DNA of 24,185 nt from a virus (taxonomy: Duplodnaviria > Heunggongvirae > Uroviricota > Caudoviricetes). The notes beneath the pieces were generated by a model that saw only the letters and a list, made by a program, of their open reading frames with translations, searched no databases and was not told where the DNA came from. A program made the position numbers and the translations under genes. Positions 1,144 through 16,978 of this stretch are shown here, piece by piece. Position 1 is the stretch's first letter, and each line of letters begins with the position of its first letter. The stretch lies in IMG/VR virus record IMGVR_UViG_3300042875_000419; one strand, 5' to 3'.

Positions 1144-1332
1144 TTACATCTTTGGCGTCTTACGTGTAAATGTTGGTGCCATCACGACACGCCTTTTCTT
1201 TTTCAAATTCACACCAGGTTCTCCACCCTTTTCACCCGTGCCGGCAATGGCGCCCGTGGAGACTACATTTGATGGTCCAGTCGATCCACCAACGGCACCG
1301 TCCTCCAACATGAATTGTTTGAATGTTTTCAT
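1144..1332 (-). CDS. Small probable internal head protein with a capsid-targeting-like N-terminus
   Basis: Starts MKTFKQFMLE (compare T4 internal-protein CTS MKTYQEFIAE); Gly-rich middle and basic tail; ATGA coupling with the upstream gene. Confidence 0.65.
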   Translation of the reverse strand: MKTFKQFMLEDGAVGGSTGPSNVVSTGAIAGTGEKGGEPGVNLKKKRRVVMAPTFTRKTPKM

Positions 1333-1715
1333 ATCTTTCTTAGTATTTCAGCCACATTCATATCTACAAGTATATCGGAAGAAATTATATCTTTTCCGTT
1401 TATACCTTTGATTGACTCTGGCATATAATTTAGATAAATTAAAAATGTTTTTAGAACATCATAGTCTACTTCATCAATTCTAAAGAACAATATCCGTGTT
1501 GCTGGTTCTGCACCAAATACATTATAAAGTAAGATCAAATGATTTAATATTAAACGTTCTTTAAGGGACTTTGTAATTTTGTAACGCCTGAAAAGCCTTT
1601 TTAGATATTTCGTGCGTTTTAAATCTCCCTCAAATTCACTCATGACATAATGTGGTGAATTATATGCCTTCATGGCATACATCATAAAATTATCTTCGGT
1701 CAAATCATCAATCAT
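1329..1715 (-). CDS. Conserved T4-like phage hypothetical protein (DUF7207-like)
   Basis: LTEDNFMMYAMKAYNSP...EFEGDLKRTKYLKRL...ERLILNHLILLYNVFG resembles a family common in T4-like cyanophages and freshwater phages. Start moved to the ATG at 1715 (MIDDL) because the longer ORF runs through a terminator hairpin. Confidence 0.75.
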   Translation of the reverse strand: MIDDLTEDNFMMYAMKAYNSPHYVMSEFEGDLKRTKYLKRLFRRYKITKSLKERLILNHLILLYNVFGAEPATRILFFRIDEVDYDVLKTFLIYLNYMPESIKGINGKDIISSDILVDMNVAEILRKI

Positions 1716-1719
1716 AATG

Positions 1720-1746
1720 ATAAATGGGTGACTTACGCCACCCAAA
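1720..1746 (-). terminator. Probable intrinsic terminator or stabilising hairpin with GNRA tetraloop
   Basis: Minus strand reads UGGGUGGC-GUAA-GUCACCCA-UUUAU: an 8-bp stem with one G-U pair (valid only on the minus strand) and a short U tract, just after the stop at 1749. Confidence 0.7.
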
Positions 1747-1748
1747 TA

Positions 1749-2297
1749 TTAAATAATAACTGCGCCGTTGCCGGTCATACTTCCGGCTGCAACCAATGTT
1801 TCATATTGTGTACGATTAGCACGACCACCCATTGTTACAGTGAATGCGGCATTTCCAGAAGTAGGAACTGCTGTAGGTGTAGTGAGGTATAAACCGCCAG
1901 TGTTAATAGTGATATCTCGAATCGAACCATTGGTATTTACGGCTACTGTTGCAGTGGCTACAGTGGCACCTGTACCACCACCAGAGAACGTTACGGAACT
2001 GTTTGTTCCAAAAGCACCTGCGTTTGCGCTGATAGAAATAACAGGTCCCATACCGGCAGTTCTTTGAACCCAACCAGCATGTGCCATCTTTGTTGCGGCA
2101 GGTGTTACTTGTGTGTTCGATGCTTCTTGTGTATCGACACCGTAAACACCAACTGCCTCAGAAAATGCTTGTGCTACGTTAGCGTTAGCAAAAATTACGT
2201 TAGCATTTGCACGTGTTGGTGCTAAGTTTAAAGCGGTGCCTGCATAAATTGGTACGCCGGTGTTTGCATCGGTCATTGTCCAGAAAGCTGTTGACAT
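1749..2297 (-). CDS. Probable virion structural protein
   Basis: T/G/A/N-rich beta-type sequence with HAGWV...GGRANRTQYETLVA and an IxDITIxxGGxYxTxPT motif typical of T4-like structural proteins. Strong SD (AAGGAGA), late promoter upstream and hairpin downstream suggest high late expression. Confidence 0.65.
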   Translation of the reverse strand: MSTAFWTMTDANTGVPIYAGTALNLAPTRANANVIFANANVAQAFSEAVGVYGVDTQEASNTQVTPAATKMAHAGWVQRTAGMGPVISISANAGAFGTNSSVTFSGGGTGATVATATVAVNTNGSIRDITINTGGLYLTTPTAVPTSGNAAFTVTMGGRANRTQYETLVAAGSMTGNGAVII

Positions 2298-2329
2298 TTT
2301 TAATTTCTCCTTGAAAGAATTCTATTTAC

Positions 2330-2337
2330 TATTTATT
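2330..2337 (-). promoter_or_regulatory. T4-type late promoter (AATAAATA)
   Basis: 7/8 match to TATAAATA, overlapping the TAA stop of the upstream gene, about 33 nt before the ATG at 2297. Confidence 0.65.
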
Positions 2338-4360
2338 GTTTCTGTGAATTGGGTCTGGTCTTAAGAACAGGCTCGATTTCAACGGTGTCACGTGGCTTTC
2401 CTGTCATAGTAGTGCCACCCTGTAATGTAATTTTGGCTGTGGGTAATTTACCACCCTTATCAGTTTTTTCCCAATCATACATGCTTTCATTTTTACCCTT
2501 CTTTTTATAGATGGATTTAATGATACGTGCTGATTTCATGTTCTTTTTACGGTGTTCGGATTCCATTGCTTTTACTGAGTTTGTAGCTGACATTGGAGAA
2601 TCTTCGATGCCACCGATACCCTCTTGCACAACATCTTCTTTGACAGACTTCCAACCACCACCTTTTGACTTATACCATTTCGATGCCCAACCGTTTGCAT
2701 ATGCGGAAGGATAAACATCAAACTTGGAACGTGCCAGAGATTTTGCTCTCGACCAAAGTGAAGGATTTGTTGGCTTATTCTTTTCATCGATTTGCTCAAC
2801 TTCTTCGTTTTTAGGTACACAATCGGGTACCATTTTTCCACCCTTCATTTTCATTCCAACTTTTTTGTGAGTGTCCCAACATGCTTCATCAACTTCTTCT
2901 TCACTGAGTTTACCTTTACCGTAATTCGAAACATTGACGGGTTTACCGCCCTTGCCTGCTCTGTCTGCAACTGGATCATGTCTTCTCTTTGTTGCAACAG
3001 CGGCCGCACGTTCACTCTTACTGAGTTCAGAGCGTTTTTCTTTTGACATGCATTTTGGTTTTGGTTCACCTGGTTCTCTGGCGCACGGACCTGCTACCTC
3101 ACCTTTTGAATTGATTCTTTTCCAATCACCTTCTGGATCAGTCTTGCTGAACCACTTACGCAAGTCTTCACGTGTGATGTGACTATCAAGTTCTCCATTG
3201 TCGTTTTGATTTTTCAGTTCGTTGATTTTTTTAGCATCATTATCAAACTGTTTTCTAGTAGCTTTCATTATACCAGAAAAGCGTTTGTTACCTTTTGCAA
3301 CATCACCAGCTTTATCAGCGGCAGATGCTTGAGCACCAGCGGCTTTCTTGTAACGACCAAGAAGGTCGGAAGAAAGTTCCTCGATATGTTCAACTTCTTC
3401 TGAATGGTATTGTTTTTGAATCTGTTTACCATATGCGCTGATATCCAACTTCTTAGGAGTTTTATCGGCATACGTACCCAAACGTTTATCCGCATCGGCA
3501 CGATTGATACCCTTAGAACGCTTGTCGGCTGTTGCATGATATTCTTTACTGCTAATCTCACCCGCTTGGCGGGACACCGCATTTGCACCGAGTGATTTGT
3601 GTGCGGCAGTTTTGTAACTTTTGAGTGTAGTTGATTTCAATTCATCAATACGTTCAATTTCTTCTTTGATTGCAACAATTTTATTGTACATGTCCATAGA
3701 CAATGCACCTTCACCACGCATATTGATTAGATTCTCCACAACTTTGTGAAGATCCATATCGGTCTTTGCATCTTCACGTGCATACTCCAGAACACGAATT
3801 AGCAATGGAATGTCCATTGTTACGGTATCTTTTTCATCAACCGCTTCTTTAACTTGTTTCTTTTCTTCATTCCAATCATCACCACGTTCACCCATACCCG
3901 AGGTTTCTTTCATGTGACGCATCTTGAAAATTCTGAATTCTGAAGAACGTGCGTATGCTTTCTTTTGATTTCCATCCATGGTCAAAGGATTCAAACCCTT
4001 TGACTTAATGAAAGACATTAGAAGACCTGTACCAGCTTCATCTAGTTGTTCAGTTTCTTCTGTTTTTAGGTTCTGTTTTTCACGGTCAAAAGTATGACCA
4101 GTTTTGTAACGCTTGAATGCATTTGAACGTGCATATGAAGAACGCTGTGCGAAAGACATAAACTCTGGATTGAATCCAAGTGAACGGATGTACTTCATCA
4201 AAAGGCCGTCCTCATTTAGGGCTTCCTCTTTGACAGGTTGTGCATACTTTGCGGACCAAGGCTCCATTGGATCCTCATATGGTGAATCACCAAGTTTGCC
4301 CATAACAGACTCTTTCTTGGCCTTCACCATATCCTTGACTAATTTACCAGCTTTGCTCAT
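2333..4360 (-). CDS. Modular basic protein, probable protease-processed internal head protein
   Basis: 675 aa of small Lys/Arg-rich modules separated by about eight acidic EExEx(I/L/V)(D/E/N/Q)E linkers; internal repeats; LRKWF...GPC...PKC and PSAYANGW...KGGGW modules (DUF5872-like from memory). Confidence 0.6.
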   Translation of the reverse strand: MSKAGKLVKDMVKAKKESVMGKLGDSPYEDPMEPWSAKYAQPVKEEALNEDGLLMKYIRSLGFNPEFMSFAQRSSYARSNAFKRYKTGHTFDREKQNLKTEETEQLDEAGTGLLMSFIKSKGLNPLTMDGNQKKAYARSSEFRIFKMRHMKETSGMGERGDDWNEEKKQVKEAVDEKDTVTMDIPLLIRVLEYAREDAKTDMDLHKVVENLINMRGEGALSMDMYNKIVAIKEEIERIDELKSTTLKSYKTAAHKSLGANAVSRQAGEISSKEYHATADKRSKGINRADADKRLGTYADKTPKKLDISAYGKQIQKQYHSEEVEHIEELSSDLLGRYKKAAGAQASAADKAGDVAKGNKRFSGIMKATRKQFDNDAKKINELKNQNDNGELDSHITREDLRKWFSKTDPEGDWKRINSKGEVAGPCAREPGEPKPKCMSKEKRSELSKSERAAAVATKRRHDPVADRAGKGGKPVNVSNYGKGKLSEEEVDEACWDTHKKVGMKMKGGKMVPDCVPKNEEVEQIDEKNKPTNPSLWSRAKSLARSKFDVYPSAYANGWASKWYKSKGGGWKSVKEDVVQEGIGGIEDSPMSATNSVKAMESEHRKKNMKSARIIKSIYKKKGKNESMYDWEKTDKGGKLPTAKITLQGGTTMTGKPRDTVEIEPVLKTRPNSQKQ

Positions 4361-4363
4361 TGC

Positions 4364-5401
4364 TTAGTCCTTTTTAGCGGCCTTTGTCGCTGTTGCATAC
4401 ATCACAGACTTAGCATCTTTGCCATAACGCTCTTTGAAGCCTGCTAGAGATTTTTTCATACCCTTAACGATACGTTCTTTTTCAGCAGTCTCTCCTTTGG
4501 ACAGAGTGCGTTCGTCCATTTGCTCCACTTCTTCTTTGTTTAGACGAGCAACAGCACGATGCATTCCTTGATTTCTAACTTTCATCTTATGTTTAAATGG
4601 CGCTCTAGCTGCGGTCACTGCATCAGCGGCTGTCTTTAAACCTGCTTGTACTGCATCATGTTTACGTAAAGGATTTTTATTTCTACCTTTTAATGGGTCA
4701 AAACCTCCCGCACCAGAGTTGGTTTTTGCCATTGCTGTTCTTAAAGCAGAATGTACACCCGTGAAGTTTTGGTCATGCTGAAAGTTTTTAGAAAAATCTT
4801 TATTAGCAGCATCCGAGTAACGCTTAAGAGTGTTTTTGCTCAGTTCATCTAATTGTTCATATTCTTCAGTTTGCATAAAGTTTTCGATATCTTCCGCAGT
4901 AAATTCAAATTCATCAACTTGCTCAATTTCTTCCTTAACGTTACCTGCAACGTCTATCATCACTTTCTTTGGAGCAAATGGATTAGAAGTTTTACCTTTA
5001 ACACGGCCAGATAATGTGTCTGTCGTTACTTTATCAGGATCAATTTCTTCTTTTTTCACTGGTTCATCATCTTTAACAGGTTTCCTGCTATAAACAGTTC
5101 CTGTGGAGATTTTTTTAGAATCAAATCCAGCTTTTTCACCCGGTTTGGTAGGAATCTGACTCTTGTAATTTTTATAGTCGAAAGGATTGTTCGCTTCTTC
5201 TACACTTTCTTCTTTCATTGGCTTCTTTTCACCACGAAGAATTTTGAAGTCGTGAGCATCGATCTTATTATTTTTATTTTTATCAATCTTGTGTTGATTA
5301 CCCTTTAGTGCTTCCATCTTAGCCTTATAATCGGCTTCGTTGATACCTTTGATGAGGTCCGCAACAACATCGGTTTGGGTGAATACGTTTTTGTTGAACA
5401 T
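4364..5401 (-). CDS. Modular basic protein, probable protease-processed internal head protein
   Basis: Start moved to the ATG at 5401 (GGAG SD; removes the overlap with 5418..5711). Same linkers (EESVEE, EEIEQVDE, EEYEQLDE, EEVEQMDE), an EF-hand-like loop DKNKNNKIDAHDF and a C-terminal RYGKDAKSVMYATATK module. Confidence 0.6.
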   Translation of the reverse strand: MFNKNVFTQTDVVADLIKGINEADYKAKMEALKGNQHKIDKNKNNKIDAHDFKILRGEKKPMKEESVEEANNPFDYKNYKSQIPTKPGEKAGFDSKKISTGTVYSRKPVKDDEPVKKEEIDPDKVTTDTLSGRVKGKTSNPFAPKKVMIDVAGNVKEEIEQVDEFEFTAEDIENFMQTEEYEQLDELSKNTLKRYSDAANKDFSKNFQHDQNFTGVHSALRTAMAKTNSGAGGFDPLKGRNKNPLRKHDAVQAGLKTAADAVTAARAPFKHKMKVRNQGMHRAVARLNKEEVEQMDERTLSKGETAEKERIVKGMKKSLAGFKERYGKDAKSVMYATATKAAKKD

Positions 5402-5417
5402 TTGTGTCTCCGTTAAA

Positions 5418-5711
5418 TTAGCAGTTCCATTTGCGTAGTGATAGTGCTTTTCTGGTTGGTCTACCCTTTTCATCCTTCATAGGACCTGGCATTCCACCCA
5501 TTCTAGCACAGAATGATTTTCTTCTATTGGCAGCTTTGCTTCCGGGTTTTAATTTGGAAGGTGGCGTAGTTACAGCCATCGATAATTTCGAACCCGGATT
5601 CTCTCTACGATAAGAAGCAATACCCTTCTGGTTCAAACCACCTTCTGGGTTTTTACCTTCTTTGCGTTTCCATGCGGCAGATTCTTCTAGAAATTTTTTA
5701 AAACTTATCAT
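5418..5711 (-). CDS. Small basic protein (DUF6321-like) with a capsid-targeting-like N-terminus
   Basis: Starts MISFKKFLEE; family motifs AW.RKEGKNPEGGLN, RRKSFCARM and LRKWNC. Confidence 0.7.
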   Translation of the reverse strand: MISFKKFLEESAAWKRKEGKNPEGGLNQKGIASYRRENPGSKLSMAVTTPPSKLKPGSKAANRRKSFCARMGGMPGPMKDEKGRPTRKALSLRKWNC

Positions 5712-7621
5712 TTCTTTTTCTTCTTTGTTGGAGGATTAACGGGTATCTTATTCAGAGTATCCATTGGTTCTTTATTCGATGGACCATGATAGCCACCGGT
5801 GACTCCCATTTCTGTGCTAGGAGAATCAATCGATTCTTTTCTAAACTTATTGAAAGATTTGCGTGTCACCTCTGCGGTACTATCATATTTATGTTCAGTC
5901 TGTTCTCTATATGTCACTTGACCAAGACCAGCCATCGGATAAACTGTACCGGAACCACGTGTATCATACTCAGGAGTTACACCAGAAGTTTTGATTACTT
6001 TCCCGCTTTCGGCGTTTGAGGTTTTCTGCCTCTTGGATTTTTGTTTGTCGTTGTCTTGTTGGAAACGGGTTTCTCTTTCTGGACCTTTGGTGGTGATGGT
6101 TGGGCTACTGCTTTCGTAGGTTCTGAAGGTGTAGCTAGAGTTTGAGGTAATTCCTCCGTCTTTAATGTCGTCTGGCTTACCTTGTCTTCTGACAAGTTCG
6201 CAACTTGGACAGATGTTGTCGGCAAGTTTGTATCGTTTGTAAGAACCGCTTTTTTGGTCGGACCGTCCAGAGGATGTGGCTTTGTCTCCACAGGTGCAAC
6301 TTGGCTCTTCGGCAAGAACAGCTTTGCTATTTGTTTTAGTTTCTGAAACATATTTTTTGTATCCCTTTTCTAATGTAGGTTTTGTTATAAAGTTTTCGAA
6401 CATCTTATTGATGTTGTGTTTTTTGTGCCTTGTCATCCAAGATTCGGCTATCTCATTCTCAACGGGGGTATCAAAGAACCAGTTAGTCATTTCATATATG
6501 ATAGAAATGTCTTCTTCTTTCTCTGACGTTTCAATTTCATTCGCTTCATTCAGGTCAATAGAGTTGTCAAACTCCAAATACTTCCTGAATTCCTGATTGA
6601 ATTTCTCTGCAACAAGTTGTGTTACTTCCCATCTTTCTTGGCGAACAGATTCAGCCATCATTCTTTCATGGCCCTCGTTACGCTTTCTAGATGATTCATT
6701 TGAAGTGTTAACAAAAACCATCATAGTTTCGTAACCAAGTTCTTCGAGTTCTTCACGTATGGCAATAATATTATACTGTTCGTTTGTTGTGCCTGTAATA
6801 ATCAGAGGCTGGCGCTGACGGATTGCTTCACGGCGGGTGTCACGTGAAAACTCATATAGTTTATGTTTGTCGTTCAGAATTGATATTGCTGTCGTTGAAG
6901 TAATTTCAACTGCATTTTGTTCAGCAATAGCTTCACGTATAACAATATCTTTACCTGAACCTGGACCACCAGATATGAAAATGGCTTTGAACATTCCATG
7001 ATTCACACTTTCATGTATACCCATACCTTTGCGAACATCACGGAATAATTCTTTGGCGTGTTTCTCTTGCACGTGTGGTGGAATACCCTGACGGAAAGAA
7101 GCAAAATCACCACTGTTTGCATGTTCACGCATTTTCGATGCTGACATACCTTCTGCACCCTCGGCATCTGGGTCACGGTGACCGGCAGACTTTACCTCAA
7201 TCTTTTTGAAGTTGTATAGTTTACCGGGATCTTCACCATTGTATTGGTGAAGTTTCTTTTCATATTCTGGAATACGGTCTGAGCCTGCAACCATTACTAA
7301 ATGGTCATGCCCCATAGCATGTAGTCGTGCCGCATGTTGCAAGAACGTTGGCATTTCTTTGCTGGAAGATTCGATGTTAGCACCAGGAAAGAAACGTTTT
7401 GCGTGTAACAATTTACGTTTAACATCTAATGGATTCTTCTTAGCATCCACAGAATGTGAAATGATAACATGGTGGGGTGCATTATAATCGTGTGCAATTT
7501 CTTGAACACGGTTGACCAACTTTTCGTGACCAATAGTTGGTGGATTCATACGTCCAAAAGCCATAACAACAGGCTTGTTTGTTTGCATGTCTTCTTCTAT
7601 TTTTTGTAAAAACTTTTTCAT
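5708..7621 (-). CDS. HIGH-superfamily (cytidyltransferase-like) nucleotidyltransferase fused to a P-loop kinase-like domain and a low-complexity tail
   Basis: FGRMNPPTIGH (HxGH-type motif), KNPL, VAGSDR and MSASKMR (KMSKS-equivalent); second domain KAIFISGGPGSGKD...LGYETMMVFVNTS; N-terminus MKKFLQKIEE. Confidence 0.85.
   Translation of the reverse strand: MKKFLQKIEEDMQTNKPVVMAFGRMNPPTIGHEKLVNRVQEIAHDYNAPHHVIISHSVDAKKNPLDVKRKLLHAKRFFPGANIESSSKEMPTFLQHAARLHAMGHDHLVMVAGSDRIPEYEKKLHQYNGEDPGKLYNFKKIEVKSAGHRDPDAEGAEGMSASKMREHANSGDFASFRQGIPPHVQEKHAKELFRDVRKGMGIHESVNHGMFKAIFISGGPGSGKDIVIREAIAEQNAVEITSTTAISILNDKHKLYEFSRDTRREAIRQRQPLIITGTTNEQYNIIAIREELEELGYETMMVFVNTSNESSRKRNEGHERMMAESVRQERWEVTQLVAEKFNQEFRKYLEFDNSIDLNEANEIETSEKEEDISIIYEMTNWFFDTPVENEIAESWMTRHKKHNINKMFENFITKPTLEKGYKKYVSETKTNSKAVLAEEPSCTCGDKATSSGRSDQKSGSYKRYKLADNICPSCELVRRQGKPDDIKDGGITSNSSYTFRTYESSSPTITTKGPERETRFQQDNDKQKSKRQKTSNAESGKVIKTSGVTPEYDTRGSGTVYPMAGLGQVTYREQTEHKYDSTAEVTRKSFNKFRKESIDSPSTEMGVTGGYHGPSNKEPMDTLNKIPVNPPTKKKKK
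5995..6351 (-). CDS. Possible nested (+1 frame) small protein
   Basis: 118 open codons, SD-like AAGGGA about 10 nt upstream, amphipathic start MFQKLKQIAKLFLPK and a Pro/Lys-rich tail. Confidence 0.4.
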   Translation of the reverse strand: MFQKLKQIAKLFLPKSQVAPVETKPHPLDGPTKKAVLTNDTNLPTTSVQVANLSEDKVSQTTLKTEELPQTLATPSEPTKAVAQPSPPKVQKEKPVSNKTTTNKNPRGRKPQTPKAGK

Positions 7622-8814
7622 ATGTTTCTGATTCCTGCAAAGTTTCTGCGGGAAAATTCTGCACGATTAACAAATTTATCTGATTCTTTTCCGTGGTGGA
7701 AGACGTAACCTTCTGGATTTGCCGCTTCACCACCATGTTCATGTTGGAACTCCTGATGTTGATTCATCACATTAATGAGCACGTTTTTTGCTTTCTGCAA
7801 ATGCTGGTGCATTTTGAACAAATTATTGTAGTGTTTTCGGTTTCGGTCAACTTTACCCAACTCATCTTTCAGTTCAGATTGTTTACCGGTTCGGTTCTTT
7901 TCAACTTTCAGCTTGTCGATTTCTTTGTTTTTCTTAGTTTCTAGCCATTTAGAAAAGTTCTGATGGTTTGGCGACTCACCTGTACGAACAGTGTGGTTCA
8001 TATAAGTTTCTAAGTGGCCACCAACACCATGATGTGTTGATGTTCCTGCGTACATGTCATCACCATGTGTGTCATGTACAGCTTGTGCGCCTGCAATATG
8101 TTTATTGAATTCTGCTCTGTCTTTAGGACCAAAATGAACCTTGGATGTATCCATCCTAGGATCAACCGAGAATACATCGGAGTGTGGTTTGAAGTTTTCA
8201 TGGTCAACTTCATGTGAAGCACTCAAACTTCCGGAATCTTTACCTGAATATGAGAGGTGTGTGACGACACCAATTTTAGCCTTCTTAACAGCAGTTTCAT
8301 GTGTGCCATGTGCTGTATATGTTAATCCTGATGGGTTTGGGTGAAAAGATGTTCCACCACCTTTTGCGGATGTTTTATCTTCGTGTGAGAACATCATATC
8401 ACCCTGATATACACCCTTTTCTGGTGCAACTTTAGGTAAATGCTTTAGTGCATCTCCCAATTTCTTCACTAAACCGGGTGCGTGTCCGTGGTTCTTCTCG
8501 ATATCAGCAGGTGTGTAATTAATCTTTGGTGTTTTGTTGAATGCAGATTTTGATGCTACAAAAAACTTACCAGTCTCTGGGTGATGACCATACACAATAG
8601 CGGGAGAACCATCATATTTCGTTGTCAATTCTGAGGATTTTTTACCCTGCTGTATATGTGATGCGGCAGCCGTAAGTGAAGCAATAGCATGTTTAGCTCC
8701 CTTCTCTCCGTTCTGGAGTGGGCGGTCTTCCACGTGCGTGAGATGTTTAATCTGGCGGCTGGCCCCTTCTTCAGGGTCTTCTTGTTCTGTTAAAAATTTG
8801 GAAAAAGATAGCAT
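7618..8814 (-). CDS. DUF6267-like protein carrying covalent nucleotidyltransferase (RNA/DNA ligase-type) motifs
   Basis: HLTHVED; TTKYDGSPA (motif I KxDG); FFVASKS; YQGDMMF (motif III-like); PEGYV (motif IV); KFVNR (motif V-like). N-terminus MLSFSKFLTE; GAGGA SD. Confidence 0.7.
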   Translation of the reverse strand: MLSFSKFLTEQEDPEEGASRQIKHLTHVEDRPLQNGEKGAKHAIASLTAAASHIQQGKKSSELTTKYDGSPAIVYGHHPETGKFFVASKSAFNKTPKINYTPADIEKNHGHAPGLVKKLGDALKHLPKVAPEKGVYQGDMMFSHEDKTSAKGGGTSFHPNPSGLTYTAHGTHETAVKKAKIGVVTHLSYSGKDSGSLSASHEVDHENFKPHSDVFSVDPRMDTSKVHFGPKDRAEFNKHIAGAQAVHDTHGDDMYAGTSTHHGVGGHLETYMNHTVRTGESPNHQNFSKWLETKKNKEIDKLKVEKNRTGKQSELKDELGKVDRNRKHYNNLFKMHQHLQKAKNVLINVMNQHQEFQHEHGGEAANPEGYVFHHGKESDKFVNRAEFSRRNFAGIRNI

Positions 8815-8848
8815 TAAATCCTCGGTGTAGTACGCTGTGACTATGTAT

Positions 8849-8856
8849 TATTTAGT
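8849..8856 (-). promoter_or_regulatory. Probable late promoter (ACTAAATA)
   Basis: TAAATA core overlapping the upstream TAA stop, about 35 nt before the ATG at 8814. Confidence 0.5.
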
Positions 8857-9577
8857 AACCCCAAATCTTAATATCTACCCATTTATCCATATCTTCTCTA
8901 ATCAAGGAATGCTTTCCAATGTTAAATTTACCATCCGTAAAAGGGTGGTCAATATCAATACGTTCAACTGGTATAGAATTTCTTAGTAGTTGCTCATGTA
9001 GCATTTCGTGGCCACAAAGAGGAACACCGAGGCGCCTCAAATTTAAATATGTTGAAGCGTAAACATTCATTGTGTCTGGATCAGCAATGGCAAATTGGTC
9101 ATTCAATAATGGATTAGGTCCATCAGTGTCTTTCGATATATACACTTTGCCTTTTTCCAGAGAAGAAAAGTCTATGACTTTATTGAGTGCTAGGTCAAAC
9201 CTACTTCGTATAACAAAGTCATATTTTACATCATTTAAAACTTGATGGCGAATTCTCAGGTCGTTTGCTTTATAAATTGAATAAAACATTGACGTACAGA
9301 AATTAGCTGGATGTGAAGCATTCGGAACAAACATGTCGGAGTTTGTTGTTGCCGGTAATGGCATATCGTATGCCAGATATATTGGATCGTAGATGAAATT
9401 TATATCTTCATACATTTTCATCTGGATTATACCACCCTGTGGTTTCCATGTATGGCAGAAAACATCTACATTGTAAATATCTAAAAGATTTCTCTTAATG
9501 TAGTTTTTTGCTTGAAATAAACTTCTAGCTTGTCCCGACAGACACAGTGCTAGTTTCAGAGATGAATTTTTCGACAT
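8852..9577 (-). CDS. Putative glycosyltransferase (ALCLSGQxR / YDxVIRxRxDL family)
   Basis: LALCLSGQAR, VDVFCHTW, SMFYSI, YDFVIRSRFDL and NDQFAI. Start taken at MSKNSS (9577). Confidence 0.7.
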   Translation of the reverse strand: MSKNSSLKLALCLSGQARSLFQAKNYIKRNLLDIYNVDVFCHTWKPQGGIIQMKMYEDINFIYDPIYLAYDMPLPATTNSDMFVPNASHPANFCTSMFYSIYKANDLRIRHQVLNDVKYDFVIRSRFDLALNKVIDFSSLEKGKVYISKDTDGPNPLLNDQFAIADPDTMNVYASTYLNLRRLGVPLCGHEMLHEQLLRNSIPVERIDIDHPFTDGKFNIGKHSLIREDMDKWVDIKIWGY

Positions 9578-10004
9578 AATCAGTACAGACTCCAATAAGG
9601 TTTCGACCCTTTATATATTCCCAATAGGAAGGACACCTTTCAGGCATGACCGCAACTGATTTGCTTGTTAATTTTTTTCCGGGATATGTCCAAATAACAT
9701 CATTTGATGTTAGTGTGAAATCATCTTCTTGGTGCCAAAAATAAACATATTTAAACGGTCTAGTGATTAATTCATGAAGTGCATCTAAGTTTTTGCAATG
9801 TAACCAGAGGCCTTGTTTGCCGATGAATTCTTCTTTGACCATATATTGTGGCTCATCATGCCCCAGCCACCACTGGTCTTTTATCCACCAAACATCAATC
9901 TCACAGTCATATCCTTTTTCTAATGCCAATAGGATTTGACTCGGGTGATTTTCTTTTTGTTTATTCGGACCCTGAAAGAGTCCACGATGTGCAATCATTT
10001 TCAT
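9525..10004 (-). CDS. PLC-like / glycerophosphodiester phosphodiesterase-like TIM-barrel protein
   Basis: IAHRG, EN, CEIDVW, LGHDEP, WLHCKN, FWHQEDD and GVCTDY. Confidence 0.82.
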   Translation of the reverse strand: MKMIAHRGLFQGPNKQKENHPSQILLALEKGYDCEIDVWWIKDQWWLGHDEPQYMVKEEFIGKQGLWLHCKNLDALHELITRPFKYVYFWHQEDDFTLTSNDVIWTYPGKKLTSKSVAVMPERCPSYWEYIKGRNLIGVCTDYVEKFISETSTVSVGTS

Positions 10005-10714
10005 TGATATAGACTCTTATGTTTGTATTCACCAAGTGGTGTGTGCATAATTGTTTTGTTAATCATAAATTCTTCCCATGGTAATCCAAGCCTACGAATG
10101 AATTGTTCAGAGATAACATGTGGACACAAAAGACCGGTTTCATTATAAACTTGTGGTAAGAAATGCAACACTTTTGAAAATAGACACATTGAGAAGAAAT
10201 TACCAACTTGAATCATGTCAGATGTTCCCTGACCCATATGGTTTCTATAACCAAGTGTGTAGAATTTCTGTGGATTGAACTCCGGCAAAGGTTCATTGAA
10301 TGTTAAATCTGGACGCATACGAATGACTAAATCATATTGCTTACCAGTTTTAAACATATGGTCTTCAAGCATTAACATACCTGAGCCTAGTTTGTACAAC
10401 ATGGAAACAATGTTCTTGGGTACATGATAAAAGTTTTTATAAAACTCAGCACGTTTAGCAAAGTCTTCTTTGTGGTCTTCATAATCTTCAACAACAAAAT
10501 CGATGGGTTTGTATGTTTGAATGATTGCTTCATTATCAATCATTGGTGCATCATCAACAATACCAGCTTCGCTATGTGGGTCCCAATATGCTTCATCACC
10601 CCAAGTGTGTATGAAAACATCAGGATTATATCTGTCAACAATATGTTCTTTAAAATTGGGATAAACTTGTTCCCAACAACGCATGTGTCCTGTTAATACT
10701 ACTGCTACGTTCAT
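10001..10714 (-). CDS. Putative glycosyltransferase, paralogous to 8852..9577
   Basis: VAVVLTGHMR, PDVFIHTW, SMLYKL, YDLVIRMRPDL and SDMIQVG. Confidence 0.7.
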   Translation of the reverse strand: MNVAVVLTGHMRCWEQVYPNFKEHIVDRYNPDVFIHTWGDEAYWDPHSEAGIVDDAPMIDNEAIIQTYKPIDFVVEDYEDHKEDFAKRAEFYKNFYHVPKNIVSMLYKLGSGMLMLEDHMFKTGKQYDLVIRMRPDLTFNEPLPEFNPQKFYTLGYRNHMGQGTSDMIQVGNFFSMCLFSKVLHFLPQVYNETGLLCPHVISEQFIRRLGLPWEEFMINKTIMHTPLGEYKHKSLYQ

Positions 10715-11322
10715 GTTTTCCTCACAAAATATAAGTTTTCTTCATTTACTTGTGACGTAACTTTATCAATCACAAATCCATTTTGTTCCAAAAAGTCAAG
10801 TGCTTCTTGTTTCGTATGTTGACCTTTGTATAGTCTAAGTTTATCCTCCTGTGGAACTTCAACAACACCAGATTGCACCATCGATATTTTTTCACCGAGA
10901 CCTTTGAGTACGGCTAGGTCTGAACCTTGTGCATCAATGTGCAGGTGGTCAATCTGTGTAATTTCAGGTGCAAAGATTGTCAACCAAGTATCAAGACGAT
11001 ATACGGCCACCTTTTTGGATTCACGTACAACAAAGTCTGTGCGACCCGGCCATGTTTCGGATAAATTATCGGAAAAATCATTTAGTGAGGCTGAACCCGT
11101 GTCACCTTGTACCATATAAAAATCTGCTTCTCCGTCAAAATCGGAGATAGCATGTTCATAAACATGATAACGATCTTTCATACCTCTTGCTTCTGCGGCA
11201 ATTCGTAGAAGTCTTGCAAGTTCAGGCGTGGGTTCAAACGCATAACAAATAACATCTGGGTTATGTTGTGTTATGTTCAACGAATCTTGCCCATGGTGAG
11301 CACCAACATCAAATAAAATCAT
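10711..11322 (-). CDS. FkbM-family SAM-dependent methyltransferase
   Basis: LFDVGAHHG, YAFEP, AISD, RLD and IDHLHIDAQGSDLAVLKG. Confidence 0.9.
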   Translation of the reverse strand: MILFDVGAHHGQDSLNITQHNPDVICYAFEPTPELARLLRIAAEARGMKDRYHVYEHAISDFDGEADFYMVQGDTGSASLNDFSDNLSETWPGRTDFVVRESKKVAVYRLDTWLTIFAPEITQIDHLHIDAQGSDLAVLKGLGEKISMVQSGVVEVPQEDKLRLYKGQHTKQEALDFLEQNGFVIDKVTSQVNEENLYFVRKT

Positions 11323-11326
11323 TTTA

Positions 11327-12007
11327 TCAACCTTTCAATTTAAATAATTGTCCCAAGTTGTGATTACCTTCCGATACTGGACATTGAATTTTCAATATAG
11401 AATTCATTTTCTCGAAGCAGAAATCTTGAATTTTTTTGGTCCATAATGCATCAACACAATCGTGAAATAACCAAAACGTATTTTCATTTGTGTAAGGCAA
11501 GATGCAAGAAATGTCTTTAAATAATTGGTCTTCTGTGTGACCACCATCAATGAAAACAAAATCAATTGCTGTGTTGAAATTTCGTTCAATTATTGTTGGA
11601 ACATCATCTGGTGACCAGCCAACTTCAGCTATCAATTCATTTTGCAAATCAAATTTGTCACGAAGATACATTATATTTCTATAGCCATCCGAATCGTGAA
11701 CGACCTTTTTTGACTTGTATGTAAAGTGGTTGAAATATTCTTCCACATAAGCATCAATGGTGACCAATTTTCCACCGGTTTTCTTCATGGCCATTGCGGC
11801 AGATAAAGCACTAATTCCAAATCCAGTACAAAGATCAATACCATTCTTCAGATTGTTATCAACAATAATCGAATGTAGAAAGTCATATTCTTTCTGTGTA
11901 ATACTCCAGGGAAAATCGTGTGCTTTTTGCTTCAATGAACTTGGATAGCTACTAACAACCTCGAAAGGAAAGGGTGCATCTTTTAAATTTAATAGCTCTT
12001 TAAACAT
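11327..12007 (-). CDS. Class I SAM-dependent methyltransferase (Methyltransf_24-like)
   Basis: IDLCTGFGIS, LVTID, IDFVFIDGGH and LFHD. Confidence 0.85.
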   Translation of the reverse strand: MFKELLNLKDAPFPFEVVSSYPSSLKQKAHDFPWSITQKEYDFLHSIIVDNNLKNGIDLCTGFGISALSAAMAMKKTGGKLVTIDAYVEEYFNHFTYKSKKVVHDSDGYRNIMYLRDKFDLQNELIAEVGWSPDDVPTIIERNFNTAIDFVFIDGGHTEDQLFKDISCILPYTNENTFWLFHDCVDALWTKKIQDFCFEKMNSILKIQCPVSEGNHNLGQLFKLKG

Positions 12008-12008
12008 T

Positions 12009-13391
12009 TTATTCCTTATGATTGTCTAAGAAGTAATTAAGGTCTTCAGGTGTACCGATGCCCCACATCTTTTCGATATTCTTAACACGGACTTTTTTAC
12101 CATCACCAACAGCTTCATTGAACACTGGACATGTATAAAATTCACCATTAGTTCGAATGTTTTTATCAATCATTTGTTCAGCGTACTTAACGTAGTCAGA
12201 ACCGTGACGCCAGTAGTAAATACCAACAGTTGCTTCATCAGAAATTACTTTCTTCTCAGCAACTTCGGACACAAAACCATCTTCATTCAATTTTGCGTAT
12301 GACCATTTTGGATGTGTTGCTTTGAATGTGAGAATACCACCATCGATAGAATCGGCTGAGAATGCGTACATGCATTCGTTAGAGTTCCACTCAACGAATT
12401 GGTCTGAGTTTGCCATAACAAGAGGTGCATCATTGTCGATATATTCTTTCGCCAATAATGTGGTGCAAGCGGCACCTTCCGTGATACCATCGACTTGCAC
12501 AATCTTGCATCCAGGTGCAATCAGATTCAACAGATATTTTAGATTGTAGGTTTCGTAGTGTTCTCTCTGAACCAAGAAAATATAGTTTGCTTCGATGTTC
12601 AGGTTTTCAACCACGACTTGAATCATGGGTTTGCCACGAACTTCGATCAACGGTTTAGGAAAAGTGTAACCAGCCTGTGCAAAACGTGAGCCTGCGCCAG
12701 CCATTGGAATCAAAACGTTCAATTTCTTGTCTCTCCATGGTAGAGACTTTTTGCTTGTACCTTCAATTGTGTTCATAAGGTCATAAATCCTTTGCATCAT
12801 ATATTCAGAGTTAACTTCTTTCGCATTTTCGACCGCAAGGAGGTGTGCTCCAGAGTCCAATGCGCCTTGGCGTCCAATGTGACTATCTTCTACAATAATT
12901 GTATTTTTAGGAAGTGCATCCAGTGCAGTCATGCATTTCCAGTACATTTCCGGATATGGCTTCGTGCGAGATACATCCTCATTACTGACATAGTAGTCAA
13001 CTTCGTCCATTACACCAATACTTAGTAGAGATAATTTTACAGTTTCTCGTATAGAGTTTGATGCAACAGCAATTTTGTAACCACGTGCTTTAATCTTACG
13101 AAAGATAGTCTGCAACAAGTATTCTTTACAGAAGCCACGAACAAGATTAAATGTTGCATCTTGTTTATCTTTCCATACTTGGTCGTATACTGATATAGGT
13201 AGACCTTTTTGTGCGGTCAACATCTTGAGTTTTTTAGTCGTATTCAGACCATCGTATTTACTCAGATGTTCCTCACGTGTGATCACAAATCCTTCACCGA
13301 CTTTCCTTAGTGCATCGTTGAGGGCGTCATAATGAAGTTCACGTGAATCAATCAAAACTCCATCAAGGTCAAAAATAACTAATTTACTCAT
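12009..13391 (-). CDS. Bifunctional HAD phosphatase / sugar-phosphate nucleotidyltransferase
   Basis: N-terminal FDLDGVLID, VASNS, KPYPEMY and VEDSHIG (HAD motifs I-IV); C-terminal LIPMAGAGSRF...PKPLI, GAACT, NSDQ, VAEK and GTPEDL (NTP_transferase). Confidence 0.92.
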   Translation of the reverse strand: MSKLVIFDLDGVLIDSRELHYDALNDALRKVGEGFVITREEHLSKYDGLNTTKKLKMLTAQKGLPISVYDQVWKDKQDATFNLVRGFCKEYLLQTIFRKIKARGYKIAVASNSIRETVKLSLLSIGVMDEVDYYVSNEDVSRTKPYPEMYWKCMTALDALPKNTIIVEDSHIGRQGALDSGAHLLAVENAKEVNSEYMMQRIYDLMNTIEGTSKKSLPWRDKKLNVLIPMAGAGSRFAQAGYTFPKPLIEVRGKPMIQVVVENLNIEANYIFLVQREHYETYNLKYLLNLIAPGCKIVQVDGITEGAACTTLLAKEYIDNDAPLVMANSDQFVEWNSNECMYAFSADSIDGGILTFKATHPKWSYAKLNEDGFVSEVAEKKVISDEATVGIYYWRHGSDYVKYAEQMIDKNIRTNGEFYTCPVFNEAVGDGKKVRVKNIEKMWGIGTPEDLNYFLDNHKE

Positions 13392-14214
13392 GTTTATTAA
13401 ACTTTCTTAAAATGGAACGAACGTCTTCAATAGGTGCATCAAGCGGCATCTTATGAAGTTCATACATATCGGGATTTTTAAAATACGCCATTAGCAACAG
13501 ACCTTGGTCATCATCAACAAGACCAATGCTCATCAAATAGTCGAGTGCTTCTTTCATATCAACAGACAAAACTTGCCATTGTTCTTTTTGTGCAACGAAT
13601 ACACCGCCGATGATGAACACCACATTATTCTGTACAGCCTGAGAAACTTGTTGTTTTGCTTGTCTAGATTCTGGATCACGATAATTAAAATAATGCATCA
13701 AGCCTGGAGTGAAATCATATTCCCATGTTTTGTTTGTAGGAATATGTTCATCATCACGGCAATAACCAAAGTCAACCCATGCGGCAAACTCATTTGTGAT
13801 TAGACCACGTTCAAATGCATCCGAAACATAGAATGCTTTGAGTGATGTAACACCAACATAGTCTTTCGACCAATATTCTGGATTACGAACCTGATAGGGA
13901 TTAATTTTTTTGACAAACTCAGGTGATGTTTGAATTGCTTCAATCTTATCACGGAGTTCTTTGTGAATATTGAAGTAGTCATATTCAACTACTTTAATAT
14001 TTGGAGAAATTGCGGCTAAACGTGGCGCAATGTCAGGTGAAGTATATACAATGATTTCAGTATCAATCTCACACATACGTGTGAAGTGGTCAATGTATTT
14101 GTCAACTGAACGTTGAAGATAGTGTGGAAGTGGTCCACCATTTTTCTCTTTGCTTGTTGACCAATCACCTCGGCCGATATCATAGAATGCAGTAACGATG
14201 CTAATTTTGCTCAT
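13384..14214 (-). CDS. WlaTC/HtrL (YibB)-family putative glycosyltransferase
   Basis: SIVTAFYDIGRGDW, RSVDKY, NPEYW, AWVDFGY, IGG and DDDQ. Confidence 0.82.
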   Translation of the reverse strand: MSKISIVTAFYDIGRGDWSTSKEKNGGPLPHYLQRSVDKYIDHFTRMCEIDTEIIVYTSPDIAPRLAAISPNIKVVEYDYFNIHKELRDKIEAIQTSPEFVKKINPYQVRNPEYWSKDYVGVTSLKAFYVSDAFERGLITNEFAAWVDFGYCRDDEHIPTNKTWEYDFTPGLMHYFNYRDPESRQAKQQVSQAVQNNVVFIIGGVFVAQKEQWQVLSVDMKEALDYLMSIGLVDDDQGLLLMAYFKNPDMYELHKMPLDAPIEDVRSILRKFNKHE

Positions 14215-14226
14215 TTCAAAGTCCCA

Positions 14227-14234
14227 TATTTATT
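14227..14234 (-). promoter_or_regulatory. T4-type late promoter (AATAAATA)
   Basis: 7/8 match in the short intergenic gap upstream of the HtrL-like gene; very close to the ATG, so the leader would be short. Confidence 0.5.
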
Positions 14235-14246
14235 AAATTATGTAGT

Positions 14247-15131
14247 TTAAGTATTATACACGAAGTATTTAGGCGATGTGCCAGTATTGGTGTCCGAAGT
14301 AATAGAAAATTGGAATTTTTTCATATAATATTCCATCCATTCCGGAACACGATCATATTGATGTACGATAACGAAGTCTTTACCTTCTGCATTGTAAACA
14401 ACACCATCTTTCATGTATGGCCTTTCTTCTAAAAGAAACGGACCGAAATCATTAAGTTGGTCTGGTTTATTTGTAACGTGTGCGTTAATTGCCCATGCAT
14501 CACTCAATTTCATAAATACTGTTTCACTATCCCATGGCAAATATGAAAGCAACATGTTGTATGCGGCTTGATCCGCCACCCAATCTGGACGATTGCTCGA
14601 CATTTGATATAAAGCAAAACACAATGATTTAATGTGTAAGGATGTGCCTGCTAAAATACCAACATTATAGACTTCATTCTCGCACACATCTTTATAAAAA
14701 TATTCACCAAAATTCTTAATGATGTTATTTCGGTTCCAAGATTCATCTTTAATTTTAATAGCCTCAGATTGTGCAATAATTCCAAAATCTCTACTACCAA
14801 AAATCTTTTGCATGTATTCAGATGGATTCTTTTGAAAAATTACATCACGAACATCTGTAGTGATAACATATCGATAGTCAGAATTCTGTTTGAGATAATC
14901 ATAGATGTATAAGAACCTCAACATGTGAATCATCATCTTATGTTCATTCTTTACTCGAACAACTGTGACACCAGCATCCTGAATTTGCTTTATTGTAATT
15001 TCGTCTGAATCAACAGCAACTAAAACTACATCACCATCAAAGCCGGATTCCTTTATTGATAGAATCCAGGGCTTTAATATTTCATATTTGTAATTAGTGT
15101 ATACACCAATGATTAAGTCTTTTTCCGCCAT
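14247..15131 (-). CDS. Putative GT-A fold glycosyltransferase
   Basis: VITTDVRDVIFQKNP (DxxD), YNVGILAG, ADQAAYN and IVHQYDR. Confidence 0.75.
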   Translation of the reverse strand: MAEKDLIIGVYTNYKYEILKPWILSIKESGFDGDVVLVAVDSDEITIKQIQDAGVTVVRVKNEHKMMIHMLRFLYIYDYLKQNSDYRYVITTDVRDVIFQKNPSEYMQKIFGSRDFGIIAQSEAIKIKDESWNRNNIIKNFGEYFYKDVCENEVYNVGILAGTSLHIKSLCFALYQMSSNRPDWVADQAAYNMLLSYLPWDSETVFMKLSDAWAINAHVTNKPDQLNDFGPFLLEERPYMKDGVVYNAEGKDFVIVHQYDRVPEWMEYYMKKFQFSITSDTNTGTSPKYFVYNT

Positions 15132-15841
15132 GGGTATTCTCCATTCATTCTTTGTTTCATCGCTTCATTTCCTTTCATAAAGAAAACATCTTGTACCGAA
15201 TCTGCTCGACTGGCTACTCTGTAGTTTACAGTATACTCACCATTCGTGTCAAATTTTGGTAAATTTTGCATCATAAATGGAGATAAAATTCTATCAACTT
15301 CTGGTTGCTCCTGTGGGTGCCTTGCACGGCGATACCAGTAAGGAGAGAAATGAATTGCCGCCATCTTCGGAATCATAAAGCAATTCACATCAATAAAATT
15401 GTCATCCAATATAGATTCCCATTTACCAAGAGATTCACAATCATCGTTACATATGTATGTGCCTTCCTGAGATACAATTTTCCTCAGAGAATATGCCCAA
15501 TCGTTTCCTTGTTGAATAACGTCAACAAGCGATTCGATATGATTGTCTTCATACCAATTGTCCTGGTCAAGGAAACAAATATACTCACCGTTAGCAATAT
15601 AAGACATTGCACCATAAATTCGGTGTCCGTTATATTGACTGTGACCTGTATTGTAAGGCAATTGAATCAGTAGGGCCTGTGAGCCTTCTAACATACCTTG
15701 TGTAGCTTTAGAATATTGTGGACCATCGGCTACCACAATATGTTCTATATTCGAATAAGTCTGATTGTTTACAGATTTCAATACATTATATAATTGATGA
15801 CTACCTGTTGTTGGGGTAATCACCGTCACCAGTGGTTTCAT
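15113..15841 (-). CDS. Glycosyltransferase family 2
   Basis: PLVTVITPT, SVNNQTY, HIVVADG, ANGEYICFLDQDNW and TVNYR. Confidence 0.9.
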   Translation of the reverse strand: MKPLVTVITPTTGSHQLYNVLKSVNNQTYSNIEHIVVADGPQYSKATQGMLEGSQALLIQLPYNTGHSQYNGHRIYGAMSYIANGEYICFLDQDNWYEDNHIESLVDVIQQGNDWAYSLRKIVSQEGTYICNDDCESLGKWESILDDNFIDVNCFMIPKMAAIHFSPYWYRRARHPQEQPEVDRILSPFMMQNLPKFDTNGEYTVNYRVASRADSVQDVFFMKGNEAMKQRMNGEYPWRKKT

Positions 15842-16970: not shown

Positions 16971-16978
16971 TATTTATA
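16971..16978 (-). promoter_or_regulatory. T4 late promoter, perfect TATAAATA
   Basis: Exact consensus overlapping the helicase stop codon, 23 nt upstream of the ATG at 16948. Confidence 0.8.

Follow-up and report, generated by a model that had tools for sequence, protein, structure and literature searches.

A candidate late operon of tagged, protease-processed head cargo in a T4-like phage

Why do several genes in one stretch of phage DNA, for enzyme-like proteins and small basic peptides alike, begin with similar ten-residue strings? The genes concerned lie on the minus strand at positions 1144 to 8814 of IMG/VR virus record IMGVR_UViG_3300042875_000419, which we analysed as a stretch of 24,185 nucleotides (the window). 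The window is part of a T4-like myophage and carries genes for a B-family polymerase, UvsX, the gp41 helicase and spanins, and a glycosyltransferase block. The strings resemble the capsid targeting sequence found on T4 internal proteins IPI-III (Mullaney and Black 1996, reviewed in PMC9026906 and PMC3012670; GmrSD targets are treated in PMC12373910; here and below, papers are cited for the portions drawn on), and an initial annotation of the DNA had proposed that the products are packaged and cleaved. We find that proposal well supported. With a probability of roughly 0.7, we read the block as a late internal-head-cargo operon of a T4-like phage, with products processed by the prohead protease gp21. 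Packaging and processing as such appear highly probable from the sequences compared; ejection of the products with the DNA seems to us the better bet, and a role in counter-defence, or in host takeover as the initial annotation had further suggested for a ready-made toolkit, can be put forward tentatively.

The four N-termini were all found as the initial annotation had placed them: MLSFSKFLTE at 8814, MKKFLQKIEE at 7621, MISFKKFLEE at 5711 and MKTFKQFMLE at 1332. They and a similar internal string belong to the following features (aa, amino acids).

7618–8814, minus strand: 398-aa DUF6267 protein (Pfam PF19782, E 1e-91), strict leader at 8814–8785
7010–7621, minus strand: first part of a 637-aa protein, with a partial leader, MKKFLQKIEE (7621–7592), and a nucleotidyltransferase of the HxGH class (CTP_transf_like, NMNAT-like)
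5834–5860, minus strand: internal leader-like string KSFNKFRKE, residues 588–596 of the 637-aa protein
5418–5711, minus strand: 97-aa basic DUF6321 module (Pfam PF19846, E 1e-24), net charge +17, strict leader at 5711–5682
1144–1332, minus strand: 62-aa peptide, strict leader at 1332–1303

In T4, residues 4 and 7 of the leader serve targeting and residues 8 and 10 processing, and gp21 recognizes the motif L/I-x-E (PMC9026906). The T4 record shows MKTYQEFIAE, the tag that the initial annotation had named, in IPII and IPIII. The 398-, 97- and 62-aa proteins have aromatic residues at both targeting positions, and an L/I-x-E ending at residue 10 is present as LTE, IEE and LEE, with MLE of the 62-aa protein (M8) a near fit. 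The claim of a leader shared across the cluster thus stands for the open reading frames (ORFs) starting at 8814, 5711 and 1332, in the register F4/F7/L8/E10, but only partly for that at 7621, which has Lys7, and not for the DUF7207, 675-aa and 345-aa ORFs (the last two being the largest in the range without a leader). The internal KSFNKFRKE does lie near the C-terminus of the 637-aa protein, as had been noted, and its pattern is retained in 79 of 120 homologues, but its Arg, two residues before the Glu, departs from the L/I-x-E at which T4 precursors are cleaved. We rejected the idea that the tail behind it is a fused former gene, as no leader-led homologue exists among 166 leader ORFs; nor was the string found as a separate gene start. 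A possible parallel is the virion-marked gp93 of cyanophage S-SCSM1 (L109), a 69-aa protein that ends in a leader-like string.

The strict pattern opens three of the 27 genes in the window; at internal positions it occurs with a background frequency of 0.0018 (P ~2e-5). This pattern was shaped on the window finding, so relatives are the fairer test. Our comparison set comprised 80 close loci (L001–L080), two of which lie in records rated 99–100% complete (G002 and G004). The scan of all N-termini that the initial annotation had suggested placed the motif in the late block alone: four strict starts in G002 (0.19 expected) and four in G004 (0.14 expected), every one inside the leader block, among the 245 and 266 ORFs returned by a simple gene caller. 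The 166 leader ORFs across the 80 loci all lie on the operon strand. Of 120 DUF6267 proteins closely related to that of the window, 110 retain both F4 and F7. The machinery proposed to read and cut the leader is encoded among these relatives as well: G004 has a gp21 homologue (E 8e-24), and gp22 is present in both G002 and G004. Derivation of the leader from a repeat of the gp22 scaffold was unsupported, since such strings number one in the gp22 of G002, two in that of G004 and none in that of T4.

Cut sites are not confined to the leaders. They recur inside the longer proteins of the block, which add three features.

6422–7009, minus strand: second part of the 637-aa protein, a P-loop kinase-like domain (residues 205–400) after an IHE site at residue 204
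4364–5401, minus strand: 345-aa modular basic protein, leaderless, with EE(V/I)EQxDE linkers, start at 5401 and a GGAG ribosome site; its last module has a cut site in 17/17 contexts
2333–4360, minus strand: 675-aa modular basic protein, net charge +26, leaderless

The 675-, 345- and 637-aa proteins are built of modules that start after gp21-type (I/L/V)xE sites and are shuffled among relatives. Some ten modules of 34–95 aa, with (I/L/V)xE linkers between them, are predicted in the 675-aa protein; in this and the 345-aa protein, basic modules are parted by EE(V/I)EQxDE-type linkers that end in the gp21 motif. At residues 38–50 of the 345-aa protein, the loop D-x-N-x-N-x-x-I-D resembles an EF-hand (Pfam EF-hand_7, E 5e-4); polyproteins of relatives contain it repeatedly. 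Modules internal to the 675-aa protein occur as leader-led genes in three relatives (L071, L077 and L078); conversely, DUF6321 and the 62-aa peptide, each alone behind a leader in the window, form the end of longer chains elsewhere. Counted over distinct contexts, a cut site stands at the module start in 19/19 cases for DUF6321 (standalone or internal), 27/27 for the kinase, 17/17 for the module RTLSK and 8/8 for PTNP, against a background of 9.6%; module boundaries were taken from the window, so that this count is partly circular. The cleanest test of cut sites at domain starts comes from DUF6267, for which we took 150 representatives of 50%-identity clusters, dropped the 12 without the anchor motif and kept 138. 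The domain is N-terminal in 118 of these (50 with the strict leader, 52 with a cut site only and 16 with neither) and lies inside a fusion in the other 20, in 19 of which a site occurs within 22 residues upstream (chance, 23%).

Do such proteins reach the particle? For cyanophage S-CREM2 we used the virion table and all 219 ORFs of PMC10665884, 24 structural and 195 non-structural. Four of its five strict-leader ORFs were detected in virions: gp6 (annotated as a SAM hydrolase), the kinase gp14, gp136 and the cytidylyltransferase gp154 (Fisher's test, p=0.012 among all ORFs and p=0.0016 among the 195 non-structural ones, of which 24 of the other 190 were detected). Replication and nucleotide enzymes are not in that table; leader proteins are. 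Virion-detected homologues of window proteins are gp154 for the nucleotidyltransferase (E 9e-23), gp137 for DUF6321 (E 2e-14) and gp160 for residues 400–576 of the 675-aa protein (E 2e-12), all of S-CREM2. In S-SCSM1, the virion-marked gp91 (NMNAT) matches the window nucleotidyltransferase at E 2e-35, and seven of the nine genes gp89–97 are marked as virion proteins; these marks were compiled from record notes, which gave 48 entries versus 45 in the paper (PMC9602691). Both orthologues of the nucleotidyltransferase, gp154 and gp91, have strict leaders. Leaderless homologues went undetected: the short DUF6267 proteins (S-CREM2 gp87 and S-SCSM1 gp257), the fENko-Kae01 nucleotidyltransferase and, without virion marks, the DUF7207 homologues S-CREM2 gp159 and S-SCSM1 gp96. 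Such controls are few and non-detection is weak evidence. The virion-marked S-SCSM1 gp97 and gp95 were tried as homologues of the 62-aa and 182-aa proteins; profiles gave no support, leaving them as positional counterparts only. The S-CREM1 proteome, as given in the portion drawn on, lists 14 proteins only.

We also observed that S-CREM2 (L101) gp12, gp13 and gp15, all detected, carry near variants of the leader. The group gp6 and gp12–gp15, with leader or near variant throughout, includes proteins annotated as SAM hydrolase, kinase and 'Cas9', which the authors could not separate from contaminants.

What would the cargo be? In the 637-aa protein, residues 11–204 constitute a nucleotidyltransferase of the HxGH class (PF01467): they match PHROG 3041/395 cytidyltransferase at E 2e-65, Atlas gave PF01467 at 0.95, and the NPPTxGH motif is kept in 117 of 120 homologues. 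A weak match to TIGR00125 (E 7e-4, below cut-off) was all that NCBIfam, PADLOC and Rfam searches added. The NMNAT label is an annotation taken from PMC9602691. The kinase-like domain matches Pfam AAA_33 at E 3e-5, below cut-off, and is likely degenerate, judging by its sequence; in HTVC008M the kinase is a separate gene that begins after its own ILKE. The initial annotation's statement that the tag sits on enzymes therefore holds for the nucleotidyltransferase, the sole confirmed enzyme family with an intact motif, but not for the kinase-like domain, whose catalytic residues are lost, nor as yet for DUF6267, which is ligase-like by motifs only.

Those motifs are KYDG at residue 66, SK at 88, QGD at 137, EGYV at 368 and K380 of the 398-aa protein; all fall in invariant columns, resemble the ligase superfamily and are presumably its motifs I, Ia, III, IV and V. 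Conservation among the 150 representatives is high, with motifs I (KxDG), III (QGD), IV (EG[YF]V) and V (a final Lys or Arg) kept in 138, 144, 135 and 135, in ligase order. Like T4 Rnl1 and Rnl2 in that order, and with no C-terminal room for an OB domain, DUF6267 differs from them in that a long insert separates motifs III and IV and that no profile match was significant. The Atlas lead, PF09414 (RNA ligase), is weak at 0.77, and neither DUF6267 nor the 637-aa protein had a meaningful match when PDB was searched by sequence and by profile. We accordingly use 'ligase-like' as a putative label. The arrangement recalls the T4 PseT–Rnl1 tRNA repair pair in that a P-loop kinase adjoins DUF6267; in HTVC008M the block further contains a HAD phosphatase. 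Unlike PseT, the kinase is degenerate in the window lineage. The window 398-aa protein contains 8.5% His; freshwater-type DUF6267 averages 8.2%, versus 1.3% in the marine clade near HTVC008M. In S-PM2 record AJ630128 (L113:7998-9777) DUF6267 is in two pieces, and in record LN828717 of the same phage it is in one, which suggests a sequencing error.

The timing of expression can be read from the upstream DNA and from the remaining features of the range.

8849–8854, minus strand: late-promoter core TAAATA (T4 gp55 type), from sequence and conservation
8828–8843, minus strand: 5' hairpin after the late promoter and before the ribosome-binding site, in 73/77 loci
2323–2335, minus strand: second late-promoter core from sequence, two TAAATA (2335 and 2328), ahead of the 182-aa gene
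1749–2297, minus strand: 182-aa Ala/Thr/Gly-rich protein, leaderless, no family
1725–1744, minus strand: terminator-like hairpin of 8 bp, −15.7 kcal/mol
1329–1715, minus strand: DUF7207 protein (PF23837), leaderless

Of 77 related loci, 73 have a TAAATA within 60 nucleotides upstream of the DUF6267 gene, compared with 3% of random windows; the initial annotation had suggested testing the motif for an association with late promoters. Its view that the whole cluster sits behind one such promoter fared less well: the core is at 8854–8849, but a single promoter does not plainly cover the range, and the 62-aa gene, behind the second promoter pair and the terminator-like hairpin, makes more than one transcript probable. 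Counts of sigma-70 promoters were at chance level. The 5' hairpin, which may be a translational operator, has a conserved 8-nucleotide loop, CA[ACU]AG[CU]GU, on a stem of 4–6 bp that is wholly exchanged between two groups across the same 73 loci. It occurs once per near-complete genome (G002 at 117066 and G004 at 139763) and had no match in Rfam; in G002 the hairpin and promoter stand ahead of an inserted gene. An extra strict-leader gene of 445 aa lies between promoter and DUF6267 in a few relatives (L011/L026, at L026:1423-2760, and L022); judged by eye its product has PD-(D/E)xK-like residues, and it has no Pfam match.

We therefore propose the following course, each step of which is conditional. 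The products would be made late in infection. The cargo would dock on the gp22 scaffold in the prohead core through its amphipathic F4/F7 leader or through a comparable helix at either terminus, and gp21 would there cleave after Glu10 and at internal linkers. Cleavage would part the nucleotidyltransferase from the kinase-like domain and free basic modules of 35–110 aa from the 675- and 345-aa polyproteins. The products would remain with the DNA and at least some would be ejected along with it. As to what they might then do, we offer guesses: the nucleotidyltransferase could be an NMNAT-type adenylyltransferase that sustains NAD+ at entry, DUF6267 could, from its motifs, be a ligase that joins RNA ends in an ATP-dependent manner, and for the basic modules the analogy of Ip1-3 (PMC12373910) suggests possible DNA binding or inhibition of the host's nucleases. 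A wider generalization strikes us as rather doubtful: that aquatic T4-like phages would use the prohead protease as a polyprotein processor, with shuffled injected modules and enzymes joined by cut sites under one address tag, and that a virion-delivered RNA ligase, hitherto unrecognised, and an enzyme restoring NAD+ would be part of the kit and act before phage gene expression. If true, each phage's injected kit would be predictable from sequence.

Several results weigh against the proposal of a processed head cargo. Detection in virions comes from homologues in S-CREM2 and S-SCSM1, and the authors of both proteomes considered that enzymes might be co-purified (PMC10665884 and PMC9602691). 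Of the two annotated strict-leader ORFs of S-SCSM1, gp91 is marked and gp30 is not, and several virion-marked proteins of its cluster have no strict leader. The portion of the S-SCSM2R paper drawn on does not have the NMNAT gene, a putative counterpart of the window gene, among the non-structural virion proteins that it names. DUF6267 was not detected in either cyanophage proteome, both phages having the short leaderless type only. Homologues lacking the motif, which the initial annotation had named as counter-evidence, do occur, and this objection applies in part: many distant homologues have no leader, and the full leader is found in 0 of 120 marine DUF6267 proteins near HTVC008M, whose common N-termini retain a short Alt-like (L/I/V)xE start. 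The leader of the 637-aa protein is strict in 0 of 120 homologues owing to Lys7, F4-L8-E10 being kept in 69. All 120 homologues have GKD in the Walker A of the kinase-like domain, where the Thr is missing, and alignment shows replacements at the two Asp positions of the HTVC008M kinase and T4 PseT, so the domain is probably not a normal kinase. Profile comparison of DUF6267 with T4 Rnl1, Rnl2 and gp30 and with PDB gave nothing significant; hhalign and hmmsearch against single T4 sequences, PseT among them, likewise yielded no significant match. Over all 19 modules, 161 of 248 starts have a site versus the 9.6% background, with low rows of 3/21, 7/29 and 1/18 that we attribute to badly placed module boundaries. 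When breakpoints were tested without supervision, 127 of 328 had a site against a background of 25%, the points being non-independent; upstream control genes gave 6 of 39 against 23%.

How else might these observations be explained? The main rival accepts that the products are packaged and cut and assigns them a structural or charge-balancing role inside the head: they would serve head assembly or balance the charge of the DNA, as T4 gp67/gp68 fragments and the lysine-rich internal proteins do, with no host job, and the enzymes would ride along or act inside the head. Most modules are indeed small, basic and without a family, the kinase looks degenerate, and the cut site of T4 gp23 itself bears the same F..FL.E string; gp21 cuts T4 core proteins into many fragments (PMC9026906), and lysines of internal proteins touch DNA phosphates (PMC3012670). 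We nevertheless consider it unlikely. Catalytic motifs are retained, in 117 of 120 nucleotidyltransferases and in 135–144 of 150 DUF6267 representatives; module content changes fast among close relatives, as at the T4 ip loci (PMC12373910); and the block is basic in net charge, whereas T4 gp67 has a long acidic tail.

If, on the other hand, the leader were a mere late activation or cut site for the protease, the proteins would be cytoplasmic late in infection and their presence in virion proteomes would reflect abundant contaminants, as the proteome authors feared. This would suit the many homologues that retain (L/I/V)xE without F4/F7 and the undetected S-SCSM1 gp30. It is improbable, since T4 gp21 acts inside the prohead (PMC9026906 and PMC5694885), F4 and F7, which serve targeting, are widely kept in close DUF6267 homologues, and the S-CREM2 virion table holds leader proteins without the replication and nucleotide enzymes. 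Least credible, and already largely refuted, is the idea that the shared N-termini are by-products of amphipathic helices or translational coupling, unrelated to the head. Three of the four leader genes do overlap the preceding stop codon, and MKxFK-type starts are common in AT-rich genes. Against it, the motif is found in one block only although G002 and G004 hold many other overlapping starts, and the same sites return at internal module junctions. We thus continue to favour an operon of packaged and gp21-processed cargo.

How much of this is new? A gp21-trimmed, ejected enzyme (T4 Alt) and virion-associated cyanophage nucleotidyltransferases are known already. The window resembles T4 IPI-III in its leader of ten residues (aromatic at positions 4 and 7, aliphatic at 8, Glu at 10), in basic variable cargo and in a gp21 homologue in the phage group; unlike them, its cargo includes enzyme-like domains of 200–400 aa and multi-module polyproteins, homology to the internal proteins having been compared at the leader only. 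The T4 head contains the ADP-ribosyltransferase Alt, which gp21 trims at two sites (ITE-6 and LTE-619) and which is ejected (PMC5694885); as a known tagged and processed head enzyme it limits the surprise. Marine DUF6267 homologues often start MELLNE (compare MELITE of Alt), but the window enzymes are of different families, and BLAST of G002 and G004 gave no match to Alt, nor to T4 Rnl1, Rnl2, gp30 or PseT. With the virion cytidylyltransferase/NMNAT (T4-GC 190) of S-CREM2 and S-SCSM1 (PMC10665884 and PMC9602691) the window enzyme shares its family, at 35–40% identity, and with S-SCSM1 also the gene block after the helicase gene; kinases too are virion-associated in both cyanophages. In the portions drawn on, those papers offer neither a targeting signal nor a model of processing and do not decide on contamination; and a cut site links the window nucleotidyltransferase, unlike the cyanophage ones, to a degenerate kinase. 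Polyvalent proteins (Iyer et al. 2017, PMC5512222) likewise join several unrelated modules in one virion-delivered chain and release them by proteolysis, but with embedded peptidase domains, whereas the window modules are mostly tiny and the proposed cutter is the prohead protease in trans. Processed head proteins of phiKZ and SPN3US offer a further likeness in their glutamyl-specific prohead proteases.

A literature search that left subscription journals mostly uncovered returned no paper linking the leader or the polyprotein model to this enzyme block of aquatic T4-like phages, and none for DUF6267, DUF6321 or DUF7207. The window's own contribution lies in the evidence for polyproteins, in the negative controls, in a kinase that has degenerated and in the conserved 5' hairpin. 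For cyanophage particle enzymes, the leader offers a sequence-level answer, and a direct test, to the question of cargo versus contamination; it also gives a likely location to a conserved block of genes of no known role. The objects of study would be the cut modules and not whole ORFs, which is relevant to screens for anti-defence proteins.

The setting is shared widely. The leader block lies downstream of the helicase gene, as it does in HTVC008M, S-CRM01, S-PM2, S-SCSM1 and DLP6, the last of which has a DUF6267 copy with a strict leader; phage records with DUF6267 number 461 and those with the nucleotidyltransferase domain 560, the nearest record (G001) being without the nucleotidyltransferase gene. 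On the same strand at 8852–15841, about nine genes encode glycosyltransferase, methyltransferase, HAD/NTP-transferase and HtrL-like products, a block that likely serves surface or DNA sugar modification. Directly after the helicase gene, a leaderless 249-aa ORF (16885–16136, minus strand; PHROG 22045) has PD-(D/E)xK-like residues and is preceded by a full TATAAATA late promoter at 16978–16971.

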